DNA from: Escherichia phage FL23 | Strand: one strand, 5' to 3' | DNA length: 64,000 nucleotides | Sequence record: PP400787 | Made by a program: the position numbers and the translations under genes | Shown: positions 8,739-48,412 of the stretch, in pieces | Position numbering within the stretch: position 1 is the first letter of the stretch | How the letters are laid out: each line of letters opens with the position of its first letter | Notes under the pieces: generated by a model | Seen by the model: the letters and a program-made list of their open reading frames with translations, nothing else | Databases searched by the model: none | What the model was told of the DNA's origin: nothing

Positions 8739-10247
8739 TTATAAATTAACTGTTTTCATTACGTAATTAAATTTTTCATCTGCGTAGCGCTGAATACGAT
8801 CAATGCCGTGTTTTAAAAGATAGTTCAAATGAACGTATTTCTTTTTCGTATTAGCAGATTTTGGCTTGACGCCTGCGTCATCTATAAGATCCCAGACTGT
8901 TGCAATTGTTTTAGAACCATGTTTACGTAATACGCGACCTATTGTTTGCAATACAATAATTTTAGATTTAACACCGTGTGCTAAAACAACGTGATGCAGA
9001 TTTTTAACTGAAATACCAGTAGAAAATACACCATAACTAGCTACTATAATTATTCCTTTACCGTTTTCAGCTAAGGTTTTCATTATATTGCGGGTTTCGG
9101 TATCAACTTCCCCTGATACGTAATAAACTTTATCGTATTCATTTTTAATTAAATCGAAAATAGCTTTACCGTGCGATACGTGTTTAAACATGACAAAAGC
9201 GTTTTCATCTTTTTGTGCAAGCTTAATAGCCAATTTAGCGATCCATTTATTTCTTTTACTAAGCCCCGTAATAATTTTTATTTCTTCTTGATAAGTTTTT
9301 CCCTTTAATTTAGTAGTGAACTCATCGGGATAGCGAAGAAAAATACTATTAATTTTTAGCTCAGTTACTTGTCCATCTTCCATTAACTTAGAAGTCGTTA
9401 CTGGCTTAAATATTTCACCAAACATTCCAACATACTGCATGATATTGGCTTTGCCATCACGTAATGAACCAGACAAACCGAATTTGAACATGCAGTTATT
9501 TAAACCTGATATGATAGATGAAATACTTTTTCCTGTAGCAAGATGACATTCATCATTCATCATCATTCCAAACTGTGAGAACCATTCTTTCGGTTGTTTT
9601 ACTACAGTTTGCCATGTACCAACAACGACTGGTGCATCATTTTTATATTTATCATCTTTTGATGCTCCGCCACCAATTTTCTTTATCATTGCATGACTGA
9701 ATAAACGATAGTCAACGAAGTCATCAGCCATCTGAGTTGTCAGAGCAGTTGTTGGAACAATGATAAGAATTTTACCTTCATAATTTTCCAAATAATATCG
9801 CGCAAGCAAAGCTTGAATTAACGATTTACCAGCGGATGTTGGAAGATTAAGAATTCTACGACGATTAACTAATCCTTCGAACACTGCATCTTTTTGATAC
9901 CAGTGTGGTTCAATTCTTTTATTTCCTGAATAGATTTCTAATTTAGAAAGCCATTCATCAAAATCTTTTCTTGATAATTCTTCTTTTTCGTTAATTTGTG
10001 GGTCAATCCAGGCTTTATAGCCAAAGTTATCACAGAACTTTTTAATTTGCCCGACTAAGCCGAATGGAAGAAGACGATTATAATCTAACAGACGGATTCG
10101 TCCATCCCAGTTGCCATATCTGAAGCGAGGGTTAAATCTATATCCATCGGCCTCAAACGAAAAGAAATCTCTTAATTCGTGGAACGTGCTCTCTTCACAA
10201 TCGATGCGTACATGACTGAAGTCGTGAAAATGTACTTTAATATCCAT
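8739..10247 (-). CDS. uvsW: UvsW SF2 DNA/RNA helicase
   Basis: 502-aa ORF with Walker A (TSAGKS) and DECH box; size matches T4 UvsW. Confidence 0.85.
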   Translation of the reverse strand: MDIKVHFHDFSHVRIDCEESTFHELRDFFSFEADGYRFNPRFRYGNWDGRIRLLDYNRLLPFGLVGQIKKFCDNFGYKAWIDPQINEKEELSRKDFDEWLSKLEIYSGNKRIEPHWYQKDAVFEGLVNRRRILNLPTSAGKSLIQALLARYYLENYEGKILIIVPTTALTTQMADDFVDYRLFSHAMIKKIGGGASKDDKYKNDAPVVVGTWQTVVKQPKEWFSQFGMMMNDECHLATGKSISSIISGLNNCMFKFGLSGSLRDGKANIMQYVGMFGEIFKPVTTSKLMEDGQVTELKINSIFLRYPDEFTTKLKGKTYQEEIKIITGLSKRNKWIAKLAIKLAQKDENAFVMFKHVSHGKAIFDLIKNEYDKVYYVSGEVDTETRNIMKTLAENGKGIIIVASYGVFSTGISVKNLHHVVLAHGVKSKIIVLQTIGRVLRKHGSKTIATVWDLIDDAGVKPKSANTKKKYVHLNYLLKHGIDRIQRYADEKFNYVMKTVNL

Positions 10248-10249
10248 AA

Positions 10250-10867
10250 TTATGCCTTACTAAATTTGCCTTTAGAATCTCTTTTCATGAGACGACCTTT
10301 AATAAATCCGTCGGGAATAATACCGTCTGGTTGTATTAATTTATTTATTGCGCCATTATTGACCCAAAAAGTTCCTGTGGTAGTCGGTTTGACTTTACAT
10401 CCTTTTCTGGACTTTCTATTAGGATGAACCATCCCTTTTACAAATCCTTCTGGAACAAGTTCTCCAGGCTTAATAAAAATATTTTTAGTTCCATTAGTGT
10501 AACAAGTTGTACCTAATACCGTGCCCGGTGAGTTTTCAAATCTCTTAGCGGAAGATTCTTTCATCTTTGCTATAACCTCTGTAGTCATAACAATTCCACC
10601 AATTCCGCCAGGTTTCATATTATAATAATTTTTGCTTTTTATTATTTCAGAAGTTATAATTTCTTCTTCATACATGTACGCTTCTTCGGAAGTTTTAAAC
10701 TCTTTTAGTATTGTTCTAGAGAAATTGTTTTCACCATATTTCTTTATGGCCTGCTGAATTGCCTTACCGGAACCAAGGTAACCATCATTCAAGTCATCAG
10801 TAGAGTGTTTTCCTATATACTTTTTACCATTTATTAGATTTGTTGTTTCATATACAAAGTGGTACAT
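10250..10867 (-). CDS. segE: GIY-YIG homing endonuclease (SegE-like)
   Basis: 205-aa ORF; N-terminal GIY-YIG motifs (YHFVYETTN...KKYIGKH) and C-terminal DNA-binding tail (IIPDGFIKGR); position between inh and uvsW. Confidence 0.8.
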   Translation of the reverse strand: MYHFVYETTNLINGKKYIGKHSTDDLNDGYLGSGKAIQQAIKKYGENNFSRTILKEFKTSEEAYMYEEEIITSEIIKSKNYYNMKPGGIGGIVMTTEVIAKMKESSAKRFENSPGTVLGTTCYTNGTKNIFIKPGELVPEGFVKGMVHPNRKSRKGCKVKPTTTGTFWVNNGAINKLIQPDGIIPDGFIKGRLMKRDSKGKFSKA

Positions 10868-18137: not shown

Positions 18138-18145
18138 TATTTATA
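18138..18145 (-). promoter_or_regulatory. Late promoter core for gene 22
   Basis: Plus-strand TATTTATA 28 nt upstream of gene 22 ATG. Confidence 0.55.
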
Positions 18146-18779
18146 ACGCTTTTTTCATGGCCTCTGCGAGAGCCATATAGGCGTCATCGGCACTTGTATC
18201 GGCTTCCGCCGTCTGTGATTCGGTAATTTCCTTAGGAGTTACCCATGCATCTGGAGCACTTGGACCCCATACTGCATCAACACCTACAGTTAATTTGAAT
18301 CCTTCGTTTACGATACGATAACCTTTATTTGTGTCAGTCAATGAACCTAATCCACGAGAAGAAACTCCTGGAATCCATCCGGCACGAATATTAGCTGCTA
18401 ATTTATCTCCAGGACCATGGTCACCTTCAATAACACGAGCTCGTCCGTATACGTCATTTCCTTTCCACCACATATCTTCTATAATGATAGCGGCTTGCAT
18501 CGGGTCAACATTAGCGCGTGGAGGATGATTTAATTCTCCGAGAGCTTGTTTAGTTAAAACTTGCTCATTAATATAGTCTTTTACCGCTTTTTCTAATATA
18601 CGTTTTGGATAAAGACGTTTATTTCTATTGACGACTTCCGCTTGCATGAATATTCCTTCGATGTATAAACCAGGTTTTAAACCTAAGTCTTTTCCATCAT
18701 GAGATTCAAGCATTGGTACGCCATCAATAATTTCGCCAGGTTGACCCCAAGTTTCAATTAGTAATTGGGGTTCATTCAT
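18141..18779 (-). CDS. 21: Prohead core protease (gp21-like)
   Basis: 212-aa ORF, same length as T4 gp21; synteny. Confidence 0.85.
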   Translation of the reverse strand: MNEPQLLIETWGQPGEIIDGVPMLESHDGKDLGLKPGLYIEGIFMQAEVVNRNKRLYPKRILEKAVKDYINEQVLTKQALGELNHPPRANVDPMQAAIIIEDMWWKGNDVYGRARVIEGDHGPGDKLAANIRAGWIPGVSSRGLGSLTDTNKGYRIVNEGFKLTVGVDAVWGPSAPDAWVTPKEITESQTAEADTSADDAYMALAEAMKKAL

Positions 18780-44261: not shown

Positions 44262-44284
44262 TATAAATATATTATCTATTTATA
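44262..44284. promoter_or_regulatory. Divergent late promoters: TATAAATA plus strand 44262-44269 (gene 4) and minus strand 44277-44284 (gene 53)
   Basis: Two exact late-core octamers on opposite strands in the 47-bp divergent intergenic region, each 27-29 nt from its ATG. Confidence 0.55.
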
Positions 44285-44295
44285 AGGAGAATCCA

Positions 44296-44748
44296 ATGGC
44301 ATATTCTGGAAAATGGGTTCCTAAAAATATATCAAAATATAGAGGTGACCCTAAAAAAATTACGTATAGATCAAATTGGGAAAAATTCTTTTTTGAATGG
44401 TTAGATAAAAATCCAGAAATTATTGCATGGGGTAGTGAAACAGCAGTAATTCCTTATTTTTGTAATGCAGAAGGGAAAAAACGTAGATACTTCATGGATA
44501 TTTGGATGAAAGATTCTTCTGGACAAGAATTTTTTATTGAAATAAAACCTAAAAAAGAAACACAACCACCAGTTAAACCAGCACATCTAACAACCGCAGC
44601 GAAGAAAAGATTTATGAATGAAATTTATACATATTCTGTTAATACCGACAAATGGAAAGCAGCGCAAGCTTTAGCTGAAAAGCGTGGAATAAAATTTAGA
44701 ATTCTGACAGAAGATGGATTACGAGCTCTTGGCTTTAAGGGGGCATAA
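44296..44748 (+). CDS. 4: Head completion protein (gp4-like)
   Basis: 150-aa ORF, same length as T4 gp4; SD aaggag. Confidence 0.75.
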
Positions 44749-45575
44749 TGGCTATTTTTCAAATAATTAATGAAAGCACTCCCCAAGTTCCAAAGGTTAA
44801 GCAATCATTAAACGAAAAGAAATGGATTCAGATAGGTCTTGAATATAAAAAGGCCAAAGCAAAAGGAATGACAGGAAAGCAATTTGCTGAAGAAAGAGGA
44901 ATCAAATACTCTACGTTTACTTCAGCAATGTCAAAATATGCTTCAGGAATTAAAACGGCTGAAAAGATTCAAAAGCTTGAATCAAAACCAATGAATAAAC
45001 TCAATAAGCAAGAAAGACAACTGCTTATGATAAATTCATTCAGACAAACATTGCGCGATAAAATTCGTAATGAAGGTGCAGCAATTAATAATAAAACCAG
45101 AAAATGGTTTGCTGAAACTATTAAGCAAGTAAAAGGACATAAAGTTGTTCGCCCGCAACCGGGACGAATATATGCTTTTGCTTATGACGCTAAACACAAG
45201 GAAACTCTTCCTTACTGGGATAAATTTCCTTTGATAATTTACCTTGGCTTAGGTAAGCATAACTTAATGTACGGATTAAACTTGCACTATATTCCACCTA
45301 AAGCTCGTCAGCAATTCCTAGAAGAGCTTTTAAAGCAATATGCAAATACACCTACTATTACTAATAAAACGAAATTAAAAATTGATTGGAGTCAAGTGAA
45401 AGGATTTAGGGGTGCAGACCAAATGATTAAGGCATATATACCTGGTAATATTATGGGTAGCCTTGTTGAAATCGCCCCGAAAGACTGGGCGAACGTTGTG
45501 TTAATGCCACTCCAAAGCTTCTACTCAAAAGGAAAACGTTTCTCTGCAAACAAAGTTTGGAGCAATGTACGATGA
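44748..45575 (+). CDS. 2: DNA end protector protein (gp2-like)
   Basis: 275-aa ORF; size close to T4 gp2; TAATG coupling to gene 4. Confidence 0.75.
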
Positions 45576-46230
45576 ATTATGAAAAAATTTATAATTCACT
45601 AATTGATAGGGCTCGCAATAGAGCCCTTACTGGATATAAAGAAAGACATCATATTATTCCGAAATGTTTAGGCGGTAGTAATGATGCTTCTAACTTGGTT
45701 GATTTAACTCCAGAAGAGCATTATGTTGCACATCAGCTATTAGTAAAAATCACCCAAATTCTTTAAAATTATCTTATGCAGCCATAAAAATGACGGTTTC
45801 AACTAAATATGTTAGGAGAAATAATAAAGTTTATGGTTGGTTAAAAAGAAAACATGCAAATAATATTTCAAATACACAAACTGGACGAAAATATTATAAT
45901 AATGGTAAAAGATGTATAAAATTGCATGATGGAGATATAATTCCTGAGGGATTTATTTTAGGAAGAGGATGGAGTCCGACACAAGGAACAACTCATTCTA
46001 GAAAAAATGACACATTTAAAAACAAAAAGCTTCAATCTGCTTTAGCTAATAAACGGTGGGAAAAAGAAAAGAAAATAATGTTAGATAACTTTGGAGTTAA
46101 CACTATTGATGAAGCAAAGAAAATTGTTCTTGATTTTAAATCAACTTGTCATCTAAGATATTGGCGAAAGCCAACTTTAGAAAAATTTCCATTTATGACT
46201 TCTGCTCGTTTAAGAAGTCTAATAAATTAA
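45572..46230 (+). pseudogene. HNH homing endonuclease, reading frame interrupted at an A5 run (HNH segment 45572-45766; DNA-binding segment continues to 46230)
   Basis: HNH motif ERHHIIPKCLGGSNDASNLVDLTPEEHYVAH in frame 2 stops at 45764-45766; frame 1 is open from 45703 and reads ...NHPNSLKLSYAAIKMTVSTKYV...NGKRCIKLHDGDIIPEGFILGR (Seg-like DNA-binding tail); one extra A at 45745-45749 would fuse them into about 219 aa. Confidence 0.6.
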
Positions 46231-46336
46231 TTCTATTATCTTCCATTCTTTTCTGTTGTTTGTTCTAAATGGAATTGAATGGAAGGGACTTAGACCCATT
46301 ATACCACCAACATTTATAAAGCATTATGAGGAATAT

Positions 46337-46867
46337 ATGTCGCAAGCACTGCAACAAATTTTTAACCAAGCAAATACAACTAACTTTGTAGTATCAATAC
46401 CACATAGTAATACTACATCTGCTTTTACTTTAAATGCTCAGTCAGTTCCTATTCCAGGAATTAGAATACCTGTTACTGATACCGTGACTGGGCCGTTTGG
46501 ACTGGGCCGAGCACAACGTCCAGGTGCTACATTTGAGTACGATCCACTCATCGTGAGATTTATAGTTGATGAAGAACTTAAGTCATGGATAGGAATGTAT
46601 GAATGGATGCTAGGAACTAGCAACTATCTTACAGGTGAAAATACTGCCCAAAAAACAGGTCCTGAATACATTACGCTTTACATTTTAGATAATAGCAAAA
46701 CTGAAATCGTGATGTCAATAAATTTTTATAAGCCTTGGGTTTCTGACCTGTCTGAAGTAGAATTTAGCTATACGGAAGATTCAGACCCGGCTTTAGTATG
46801 TACAGCAACGATTCCTTATACGTATTTTCAAGTAGAAAAAGATGGAAAAATTATAGCGGAAGTTTAA
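46337..46867 (+). CDS. 3: Tail completion / sheath stabiliser (gp3-like)
   Basis: 176 aa from ATG 46337 with SD gaggaa (track ORF starts at upstream TTG); matches T4 gp3 length. Confidence 0.75.
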   Translation: MSQALQQIFNQANTTNFVVSIPHSNTTSAFTLNAQSVPIPGIRIPVTDTVTGPFGLGRAQRPGATFEYDPLIVRFIVDEELKSWIGMYEWMLGTSNYLTGENTAQKTGPEYITLYILDNSKTEIVMSINFYKPWVSDLSEVEFSYTEDSDPALVCTATIPYTYFQVEKDGKIIAEV

Positions 46868-46916: not shown

Positions 46917-47641
46917 ATGAAACTAATCTTTTTAAGCGGTGTAAAGCGTAGTGGAAAAGATACTACTGCTGATTTTATCATGAGCAATTATTCTGCAGTT
47001 AAATACCAACTTGCTGGTCCTATTAAGGATGCATTGGCTTATGCATGGGGAGTATTTGCAGCAAATACCGACTATCCTTGCTTAACTCGTAAAGAGTTTG
47101 AAGGAATTGACTATGATCGTGAGACTAATTTAAATCTAACTAAATTAGAAGTAATCACGATTATGGAACAAGCATTTTGCTATCTTAATGGTAAAAGCCC
47201 AATTAAAGGTGTGTTTGTTTTTGATGACGAAGGACAAGAATCAGTTAATTCCGTAGCATTTAACAAGATTATTGACGTTATAAATAATATTGAAGATCAA
47301 TGGTCAGTCCGTCGTCTGATGCAAGCCCTAGGTACGGATTTGATTGTTAATAACTTCGACCGCATGTACTGGGTAAAATTATTTGCTTTAGATTATCTTG
47401 ATAAATTTAACTCAGGTTATGATTATTATATCGTTCCTGATACTCGTCAAGATCATGAAATGGATGCGGCTAGGGCGATGGGTGCTACAGTAATTCATGT
47501 AGTTCGTCCTGGTCAAAAATCCAATGATACACATATTACAGAAGCTGGATTGCCAATTCGTGATGGCGATTTAGTAATTACAAACGATGGTTCTCTTGAA
47601 GAACTTTTTTCTAAAATTAAAAATACACTAAAGGTACTATA

Positions 47642-48390: not shown

Positions 48391-48412
48391 AAAATTAATT
48401 AGGAAAATAAAA

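Follow-up and report, generated by a model that had tools for sequence, protein, structure and literature searches.

The locus between genes 2 and 3

The element described here lies on the + strand at 45572-46230 of the window, the whole 64,000-nt stretch of DNA that was analysed. It is situated between gene 2 (44748..45575, +), which encodes the DNA end protector of 275 aa and was assigned from ORF calls and the RB32 annotation, and gene 3 (46338..46867, +), which encodes the tail completion and sheath stabiliser protein of 176 aa and was assigned from ORF calls and annotation. The local gene order, 53(-), 4, 2, element, 3, 1, 57A and 57B, matches that of T4 and RB32. Over a 1-kb stretch around the element, the window matches Escherichia phage FL44 (PP400790.1, Tequatrovirus), from pig faeces in Denmark, with 100% identity. 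The TGA stop codon of gene 2 shares the letters ATGA with the start codon of the endonuclease gene, giving a 4-nt overlap.

In T4, genes 2 and 3 are separated by a 106-nt spacer alone, in agreement with the statement in the initial annotation, made from the letters alone, that T4 carries no gene at this position. The site is empty in both T4 and ASO78A and occupied here, and the earlier description of a free-standing HNH endonuclease insertion between genes 2 and 3 is thereby upheld. Comparison of the junction across relatives, which had been proposed as a check, revealed a polymorphic site with a single ORF elsewhere; the element is present between genes 2 and 3 in 36 of the ~500 Tequatrovirus records having this junction. 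Free-standing between conserved genes and present or absent among related genomes, the gene shows the distribution by which Mob-type genes are recognized. Serratia phage X20 (Winklervirus) and VR25 (Gaprivervirus) each have an orthologue of ~66–70% nucleotide identity in this slot, where it likewise overlaps gene 2 by 4 nt. Judged from the features under the match, C6, QL01 and Kc304 have this arrangement as well.

The element is already known, being annotated in dozens of phage genomes. Its first annotation was as RB32 ORF146c, described as [quoted passage not shown], and RB32 has been listed with two mob-like HNH genes (PMC2993671). The FL44 GenBank record contains two separate "homing endonuclease" CDSs, so the split discussed below is already visible there.

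Two reading frames and a single-base lesion

The coding sequence is distributed over two frames. ORF1 (45572..45766, +; 64 aa) encodes residues 1–60 of the endonuclease, which form the Mob-type HNH core, and then runs through 4 out-of-frame residues to a stop codon; it contains HHIIPKCLGGSNDASNLVDLTPEEHYVAH, the HNH motif that had been quoted for the first ORF. ORF2 (45790..46230, +) comprises the C-terminal 146 residues and contains NGKRCIKLHDGDIIPEGFILGR. The frame is open from 45703, with 45790 as the position of the first ATG, so that the frames and coordinates given previously for the two halves were correct. The ORF1 stop lies 24 nt ahead of ATG 45790, and no Shine-Dalgarno sequence precedes this ATG.

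Alignment with relatives placed the lesion at 45750..45751 (+), where a 1-nt deletion has removed an A and converted ATACAC to ATCAC. Relatives (RB32, Pinarejo and CT01 in the alignment) read GTAAAAATACACCC versus GTAAAAAT-CACCC in the window, the lost A having followed T45750. The initial annotation had located the interruption at the A5 run (45745-45749); the deletion instead lies downstream of that run, at a site that is not a homopolymer. Its prediction that one extra A in the run would restore a protein of ~219 aa holds as far as length is concerned, since an added base does yield a 219-aa ORF, but the missing base is outside the run. The ancestral protein reads LLVKIHPNSL with Ile at residue 60 (KIHPN), whereas repair to six A's would yield LLVKNHPNSL, with Asn (KNHPN) in place of the ancestral Ile. 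With the lesion outside the A5 run, both the suspicion of a homopolymer error and a search for six A's in read data as proof of an intact gene are misdirected.

A 70-nt probe across the lesion matched 36 phage records; the match was ungapped in FL44 only, and the other 35 records carried the extra base. Over its 659 nt, the element differs from its closest relatives by this gap and one substitution only (99.7% identity). The substitution is a C to T missense change at 46154 (+) that produces P195L in a conserved HPRYW motif and occurs in no relative compared, so the window copy is set against its relatives by both the frameshift and P195L. An intact ORF, as expected of a functional Mob member, is not present in this copy, in which a stop follows after 64 codons.

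The two halves derive from one protein

The homology search with the conceptually repaired protein that had been recommended was carried out and identified PHROG 655, "homing endonuclease", with an E-value of 1e-58. In a database search, the repaired protein had 2933 homologues at E<=1e-5; by this count and the PHROG match, the pair of ORFs did not arise by chance. ORF1 and ORF2 match PHROG 655 positions 27-87 and 100-218, respectively, which are consecutive, and in every relative both ORFs match successive parts of single proteins of 214-225 aa. All 27 of the 27 aligned homologues (39–63% identity) are continuous through the break, with P62 invariant, and a single ORF is found in 35 of the 36 phage records.

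By these comparisons, the single-ORF organisation is ancestral and the two halves belong to one 219-aa protein. The opposite proposal, that two truly independent small genes merely resemble the halves of one protein, had been named beforehand as an outcome that would overturn the interpretation. It could draw on the annotation of two separate CDSs in the FL44 GenBank record, but the consecutive matches to PHROG 655 and to single proteins in every relative, together with the counts of 35/36 records and 27/27 homologues, leave it with almost no probability.

Protein family and domain organisation

The endonuclease aligns with T4 MobB (45% identity over 126 aa, E 2e-30), MobD (53% identity over 75 aa) and MobC (34% identity over 134 aa). 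The pattern MNYxKIYNxLI...ExHHIIPxxxGGxDxxxNLVxLTxxEHxxAHxLLxKI is common to MobA-E and the endonuclease, and twelve columns are invariant across MobA-E. No variation is seen at the HNH motif residues HH26-27, N41, H50 and H54 among 28 aligned homologues. Matches to the Pfam HNH and HNH_5 models remained under the gathering score (16.5-18.6 bits vs 21.4), and PF01844 was matched at E<=0.01 by 20 of 28 relatives. On the basis of these alignments, the N-terminal ~100 residues are assigned to the T4 Mob family, of HNH type.

The C-terminal residues, ~105-219, gave no alignment with any of MobA-E, and no Pfam family was matched by the 146-aa fragment. According to PMC2790892, an N-terminal HNH domain is common to the Mob proteins, and the C-terminal domain, which presumably binds DNA, is particular to each of them. 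The lack of T4 Mob alignment past residue ~105 fits this published pattern of individual C-terminal domains, and the C-terminal half is regarded as a distinct, putatively DNA-binding region.

An AlphaFold model built on the homologue alignment (mean pLDDT 89.5) places a nuclease domain at residues 1–103, with a helix at 3–16, strands at 24–27 and 42–45, a helix at 47–60, and helices at 65–73 and 89–103. Beyond this domain, strands within 107–118 belong to a beta-hairpin, the NGxxx...PxGFxxGR module, which is followed by a low-confidence linker (~133–150) and a four-helix domain (152–218). The break falls at the exact end of helix 47–60 of the beta-beta-alpha-metal motif and is thus located within the modelled nuclease domain. 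ORF2 accordingly spans helices 65–73 and 89–103 of the nuclease domain, the beta-hairpin NGxxxIxxxxxxxxPxGFxxGR module and the helical C-terminal domain. PDB structure searches returned no significant match, and a PDB sequence search returned nothing meaningful.

The C-terminal half had been described as a Seg-like tail, a description that is partly accurate. A short module is indeed common to the endonuclease and a 205-aa GIY-YIG Seg-like ORF at 10250-10867 of the window (tblastn E 0.001); this xNGxxxxxIxxxxxxPxGFxKGR module occurs twice in the Seg-like ORF and once in the endonuclease. The catalytic domain is nevertheless HNH and not GIY-YIG: a GIY-YIG catalytic domain is absent from the endonuclease, whose N-terminus is that of a Mob HNH protein, whereas Seg-type enzymes have a GIY-YIG catalytic domain. 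NUMOD3 (PF07460) gave no match at E<=1 in the endonuclease itself; it was found in 1 of 28 aligned relatives and in several more distant homologues.

Insertion anatomy and the gene 2 flank

Comparison of occupied alleles with the empty alleles of T4 and ASO78A defined precise edges for the insertion. The empty alleles read ...AAAGTCTGGTCAAATAT|TTAATTC and the occupied alleles ...AAAGTTTGGAGCAATGT[ACGATGAAT...CTAATAAAT]TAATTC. The TAA stop codon of the endonuclease gene (46228..46230, +) forms the right edge of the ~660-nt insertion and aligns with the gene 2 stop of the empty alleles. In occupied alleles, gene 2 ends differently, in SNVR*, and its new TGA stop overlaps the ATG of the element.

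The sequence of the element-proximal part of gene 2 also differs between the two kinds of allele. A block of 13 substitutions (45512..45567, +), identified by alignment of element-carrying with T4/ASO78A empty alleles, occupies the last 60 nt of gene 2, compared with roughly one substitution per 40–50 nt elsewhere in gene 2 and in gene 3. The block includes a GGAG Shine-Dalgarno sequence (45559..45562, +), which precedes the endonuclease ATG by 9 nt. This GGAG arises through a switch of a gene 2 Ser codon from TCA to AGC; the empty alleles read TGGTCAAAT. The 13-substitution block is common to element-carrying relatives. Among 500 records, 37 contain the full block (36 carriers plus CT01), ~14 element-less phages contain only its upstream part, and 446 are of the T4 type. 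We infer that the block is a candidate immunity or co-converted tract, its pattern being as expected for a co-converted or cleavage-immune flank.

Expression signals and predicted RNA structure

Motif search located the consensus of T4 late promoters, TATAAATA, immediately before gene 4 (44262..44269, +). The next + strand TATAAATA is at 47279, so that no late-promoter consensus belongs to the endonuclease gene itself. The sole upstream + strand occurrence, before gene 4, suggests that the endonuclease gene is co-transcribed with genes 4 and 2. A scan for sigma-70 promoters and terminators near the element yielded nothing over shuffled expectation.

The 5' end of the gene (45540-45645) folds better than shuffled controls (z -4.2). 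Folding predicted an AU-rich RNA hairpin (45573..45598, +), in which the UG of the start codon and the next bases pair with 45588-45598, and a GC hairpin, GGGCTC-GCAATA-GAGCCC, in the 5' coding region (45609..45626, +). X20 and VR25 retain the GC hairpin, the latter with one compensatory U-A to C-G double change.

A real mutation versus a sequencing error

The initial annotation had left three possibilities for the interrupted gene: decaying, frameshifted or mis-sequenced. A single-base frameshift is confirmed, and mis-sequencing is the least likely of the three. Under the latter, the phage would possess an intact 219-aa gene and the deposited consensus would simply miss the A. The split is seen just in FL44 and FL23, which come from the same study, laboratory and pipeline, and the A is present in the other 35 records. 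Against this, the site, ATACAC, is no homopolymer, and both phages were sequenced by Illumina MiSeq 2x250 with de novo assembly (PMC12032242), in which consensus indels are rare at such sites. Furthermore, FL44 and FL23 were sequenced separately within that study, share 99.77% identity (PMC12032242) and gave the same two ORFs. The exact 64-aa and 146-aa products are deposited for FL44 (XAO17816, XAO17815) and FL23 (XAO17074, XAO17075); the FL23 split was read from these protein accessions and the FL44 lesion from the deposited nucleotide consensus.

A survey of indels between RB32 and FL44 addressed the same question. The survey is clean within a colinear block of 34 kb; outside this block, divergence gives rise to many paired alignment gaps, which are uninformative on assembly quality. 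Within the block, the 45751 deletion alone among isolated 1-nt indels disrupts a conserved FL44 ORF. Another isolated indel, a T-run difference at 18150, affects the last codons of gene 21 and leaves the FL44 ORF unbroken, and the remaining one, at 48409, lies just upstream of an ATG. The non-homopolymer site, the MiSeq data, the two isolates and the clean 34-kb survey together indicate that the frameshift is most likely a real, lineage-specific inactivating mutation, and an artefact of sequencing or assembly appears improbable.

Possible residual activity

Acceptance of the frameshift as real raises the question of whether some product could still be made, through leaky recoding or as a split enzyme. 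A -1 slip of tRNA-Lys on A_AAA (45745-45748), with GUAAAAAUC as the candidate shift site, would read ...LLVK NHPNSLKLSYAAIKM..., one residue off the ancestor; a near-native full-length enzyme (I60N) would then be made at a low level, and the element would be partly active. However, the zero-frame codons GUA AAA AUC do not form an X XXY YYZ slippery heptamer, a stimulatory element was not found, and the two-frame layout is not conserved (single ORF in 35/36 records and in 27 homologues), as expected of a recent accident and not of a selected design.

Re-initiation at ATG 45790 would alternatively supply a DNA-binding fragment that works with the 64-aa HNH piece or alone, leaving the element active in part or repurposed. 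The distance is short, with the ORF1 stop just 24 nt ahead of this ATG, and the residues of the HNH motif are all kept in the 64-aa piece. Yet ATG 45790 has no Shine-Dalgarno sequence, and the modelled break lies inside the nuclease domain, where it parts the beta-beta-alpha core from helices 65–103. Recoding or a split enzyme is, on balance, quite unlikely. Still less credence is given to the wider reading in which inactivation is incomplete, whether through slippage on the A-run to give an attenuated low-dose enzyme (I60N), through fragments with some activity, or, judged jointly with these, through a new role, for example of the 146-aa or 64-aa pieces in site-specific binding or repression at the 2/3 junction.

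Two specific mechanisms were rejected. Programmed -1 frameshifting was dismissed because a slippery heptamer is lacking and relatives do not share the two-frame layout. Transcriptional slippage on the A5 run was dismissed because the run is too short and the lesion lies outside it; such slippage requires runs much longer than A5.

Relation to known systems

The closest counterpart of the gene is RB32 ORF146c (YP_803088.1), which is the same gene at the same insertion site with the same ATGA overlap and 99.7% nucleotide identity over 659 nt; further copies are found in RB33, HY03, vB_EcoM_112, fPS-2 and others. Relative to ORF146c, the window copy lacks the A after 45750, is shifted in frame past codon 60 and carries P195L.

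The T4 Mob family resembles the window gene in its conserved N-terminal domain and in its free-standing position between conserved genes. The slots differ, being 2/3 here versus nrdA/nrdB, a-gt/55 and others for the T4 mob genes, and the C-terminal half of the window protein cannot be aligned with T4 Mob proteins. MobE is the characterised member of the family, and the activity and target of the window gene are predicted by analogy with it. mobE is promoterless and co-transcribed (PMC2790892), resembling the window gene with its lack of an own promoter consensus. The title of reference B68 in PMC2993671 refers to sequestration of the mobE RBS by a hairpin; the predicted 5' hairpins of the window gene recall the mobE RBS hairpin, to the extent given by that title, and the internal terminator (PMC2790892, PMC2993671).

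Inactivated remnants of HNH homing endonucleases likewise persist in T4, namely mobA (a 37-aa remnant) and the truncated I-TevIII (T4 annotation; PMC2790892). The mobA and I-TevIII lesions are deletions, whereas the window gene is complete apart from one lost base. Since its coding sequence is whole but for 1 nt, the lesion is much younger than those of mobA and I-TevIII.

Several states of decay are represented at the 2/3 site itself. The gene is intact in ~30 Tequatrovirus genomes. CE1 shows an in-frame codon loss (YYNNG to YNNG). In Manna, the right end is changed and the stop lost, and an annotated 431-aa ORF reads into gene 3, so that the endonuclease is predicted to be fused to gene 3. 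CT01 has a ~486-nt internal deletion and retains a 57-aa ORF without the HNH motif. The fresh frameshift of FL44 and FL23 joins these states.

Proposed history of the element

The element is, very probably, a free-standing Mob-type HNH gene (the RB32 ORF146c element) at the end of gene 2 that has recently been inactivated to a pseudogene. In its intact form, the gene would be expressed from the gene 4 late promoter, its own promoter consensus being absent, and its translation would probably be coupled to that of gene 2 through the ATGA overlap and the GGAG of the recoded Ser codon. The product would be a 219-aa two-part enzyme, with an N-terminal Mob HNH nuclease domain (~1–103) and a C-terminal part composed of the beta-hairpin module, a flexible linker and a helical, presumably DNA-binding, domain.

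MobE nicks T2 nrdB (PMC2790892). By analogy with MobE, in a co-infected cell the intact enzyme would nick or cut the allele that lacks the element, close to the 2/3 junction, and repair off the element-carrying genome would copy in both the gene and the neighbouring gene 2 polymorphisms. In FL44 and FL23, loss of the A right after codon 60 ends translation after 64 residues and leaves the presumed targeting half in another frame without a ribosome-binding site. The FL44 copy would then specify a 64-aa peptide without the remaining nuclease domain and the targeting region, and homing would cease; full loss of activity in this copy is what we infer from the sequence.

Implications

For FL44 and FL23, the two "homing endonuclease" CDSs merit merging into one flagged pseudogene, whose lesion is not attributable to a homopolymer. 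Beyond annotation, the significance of the finding is small. The mutation is an ordinary early step of homing-endonuclease decay, and the lesion would represent one stage in the cycle of invasion, decay and loss of homing endonuclease genes. Across phages, the 2/3 junction is found empty (T4), with an intact gene (RB32 and ~30 others), and with a frameshift, a codon loss, a stop loss or a stump, so that every phase in the life of a homing endonuclease gene can be seen at one site. The 2/3 locus would therefore be a convenient system for characterising this Mob-like enzyme and its target.

Hairpins and shared modules of the endonuclease gene

The endonuclease mRNA has two predicted RNA hairpins at its 5' end (plus strand). 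The first (45573-45598) pairs the start codon region, and its arms encode the Mob-conserved residues N-Y and I-Y-N. The second (45609-45626) is a GC stem, which is preserved in the orthologues of the phages X20 and VR25; in VR25, two synonymous substitutions turn one U-A pair into C-G. By analogy, these two predicted structures recall the RBS hairpin and internal terminator of mobE, the characterised Mob gene of T4.

A GIY-YIG (Seg-like) ORF of 205 aa is located elsewhere in the window, on the minus strand (10250-10867), directly adjoining a 502-aa helicase ORF (8739-10247) that is probably uvsW. The module NGxxxxxIxPGxxxPxGFxKG is present in two tandem copies in the Seg-like ORF and in one copy in the HNH element.

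At 18141-18150 on the minus strand, within the last codons of the gene 21 (prohead protease) counterpart, a run of T6 versus T7 distinguishes FL44 from RB32; the RB32 protein comprises 217 aa and the FL44 counterpart 212 aa. The T4 late-promoter consensus TATAAATA occurs 23 times in the whole window against 9.9 copies expected, a number reached in none of 100 shuffles. Many copies are located upstream of structural genes, a placement that fits a T4-type late region, as expected.

Altered copies of the element

Altered copies of the element were identified in three other phages. In vB_EcoM_CE1 (locus L015, 373-1029), the YYNNG module has lost one Tyr through a 3-nt in-frame deletion, and the protein has 218 rather than 219 aa. 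Shigella phage CT01 (L008, OK018184.1, 773-946) carries a remnant with an internal deletion, which fuses the first ~13 codons to the last ~45 and has its left breakpoint where the GC hairpin begins. The resulting ORF is a 57-aa "hypothetical protein", from which the HNH motif is absent.

In Salmonella phage Manna (L014, PP987310.1, 373-1401), the sequence at the element's right end (corresponding to window 46215-46235) is AGTCAAAT-ATCTAATTC rather than AGTCTAATAAATTAATTC. The stop codon of the element is gone, and the annotated 431-aa ORF, Manna_142, reads from the endonuclease through to gene 3 without a change of frame. The altered right end looks like the gene 2 terminus at empty sites (GGTCAAATATTTAATTC), a likeness suggestive of recombination with an allele that lacks the element.

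When proteins are clustered at 90% identity, the 219-aa endonuclease falls together with gp3 tail-completion proteins of 176 and 203 aa and with entries described as "phage tail protein, partial" and labelled Enterococcus faecalis and E. coli. ORFs that arise by read-through or fusion, Manna_142 among them, are the probable cause of this mixture; the Enterococcus labels look like contamination.

Gene 2 alleles and the ends of the element

Approximately 14 element-less phage records, including T4_ev151, SG1, FL12 and EC128, carry the element-type sequence in the upstream portion of the block at the 3' end of gene 2 (window 45490-45560) and lack the element-type junction. These hybrid alleles could have arisen by loss of the element or by partial co-conversion, or could be variants that resist cleavage.

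The element's final codons (AAGTCTAATAAATTAATTC, window 46210-46235) are similar to those that close gene 2 in empty alleles (AAGTCTGGTCAAATATTTAATTC; comparison loci L009 and L010). On this similarity, the original terminus of gene 2 may survive, in degenerate form, as the C-terminus of the endonuclease, gene 2 itself having acquired a new end.
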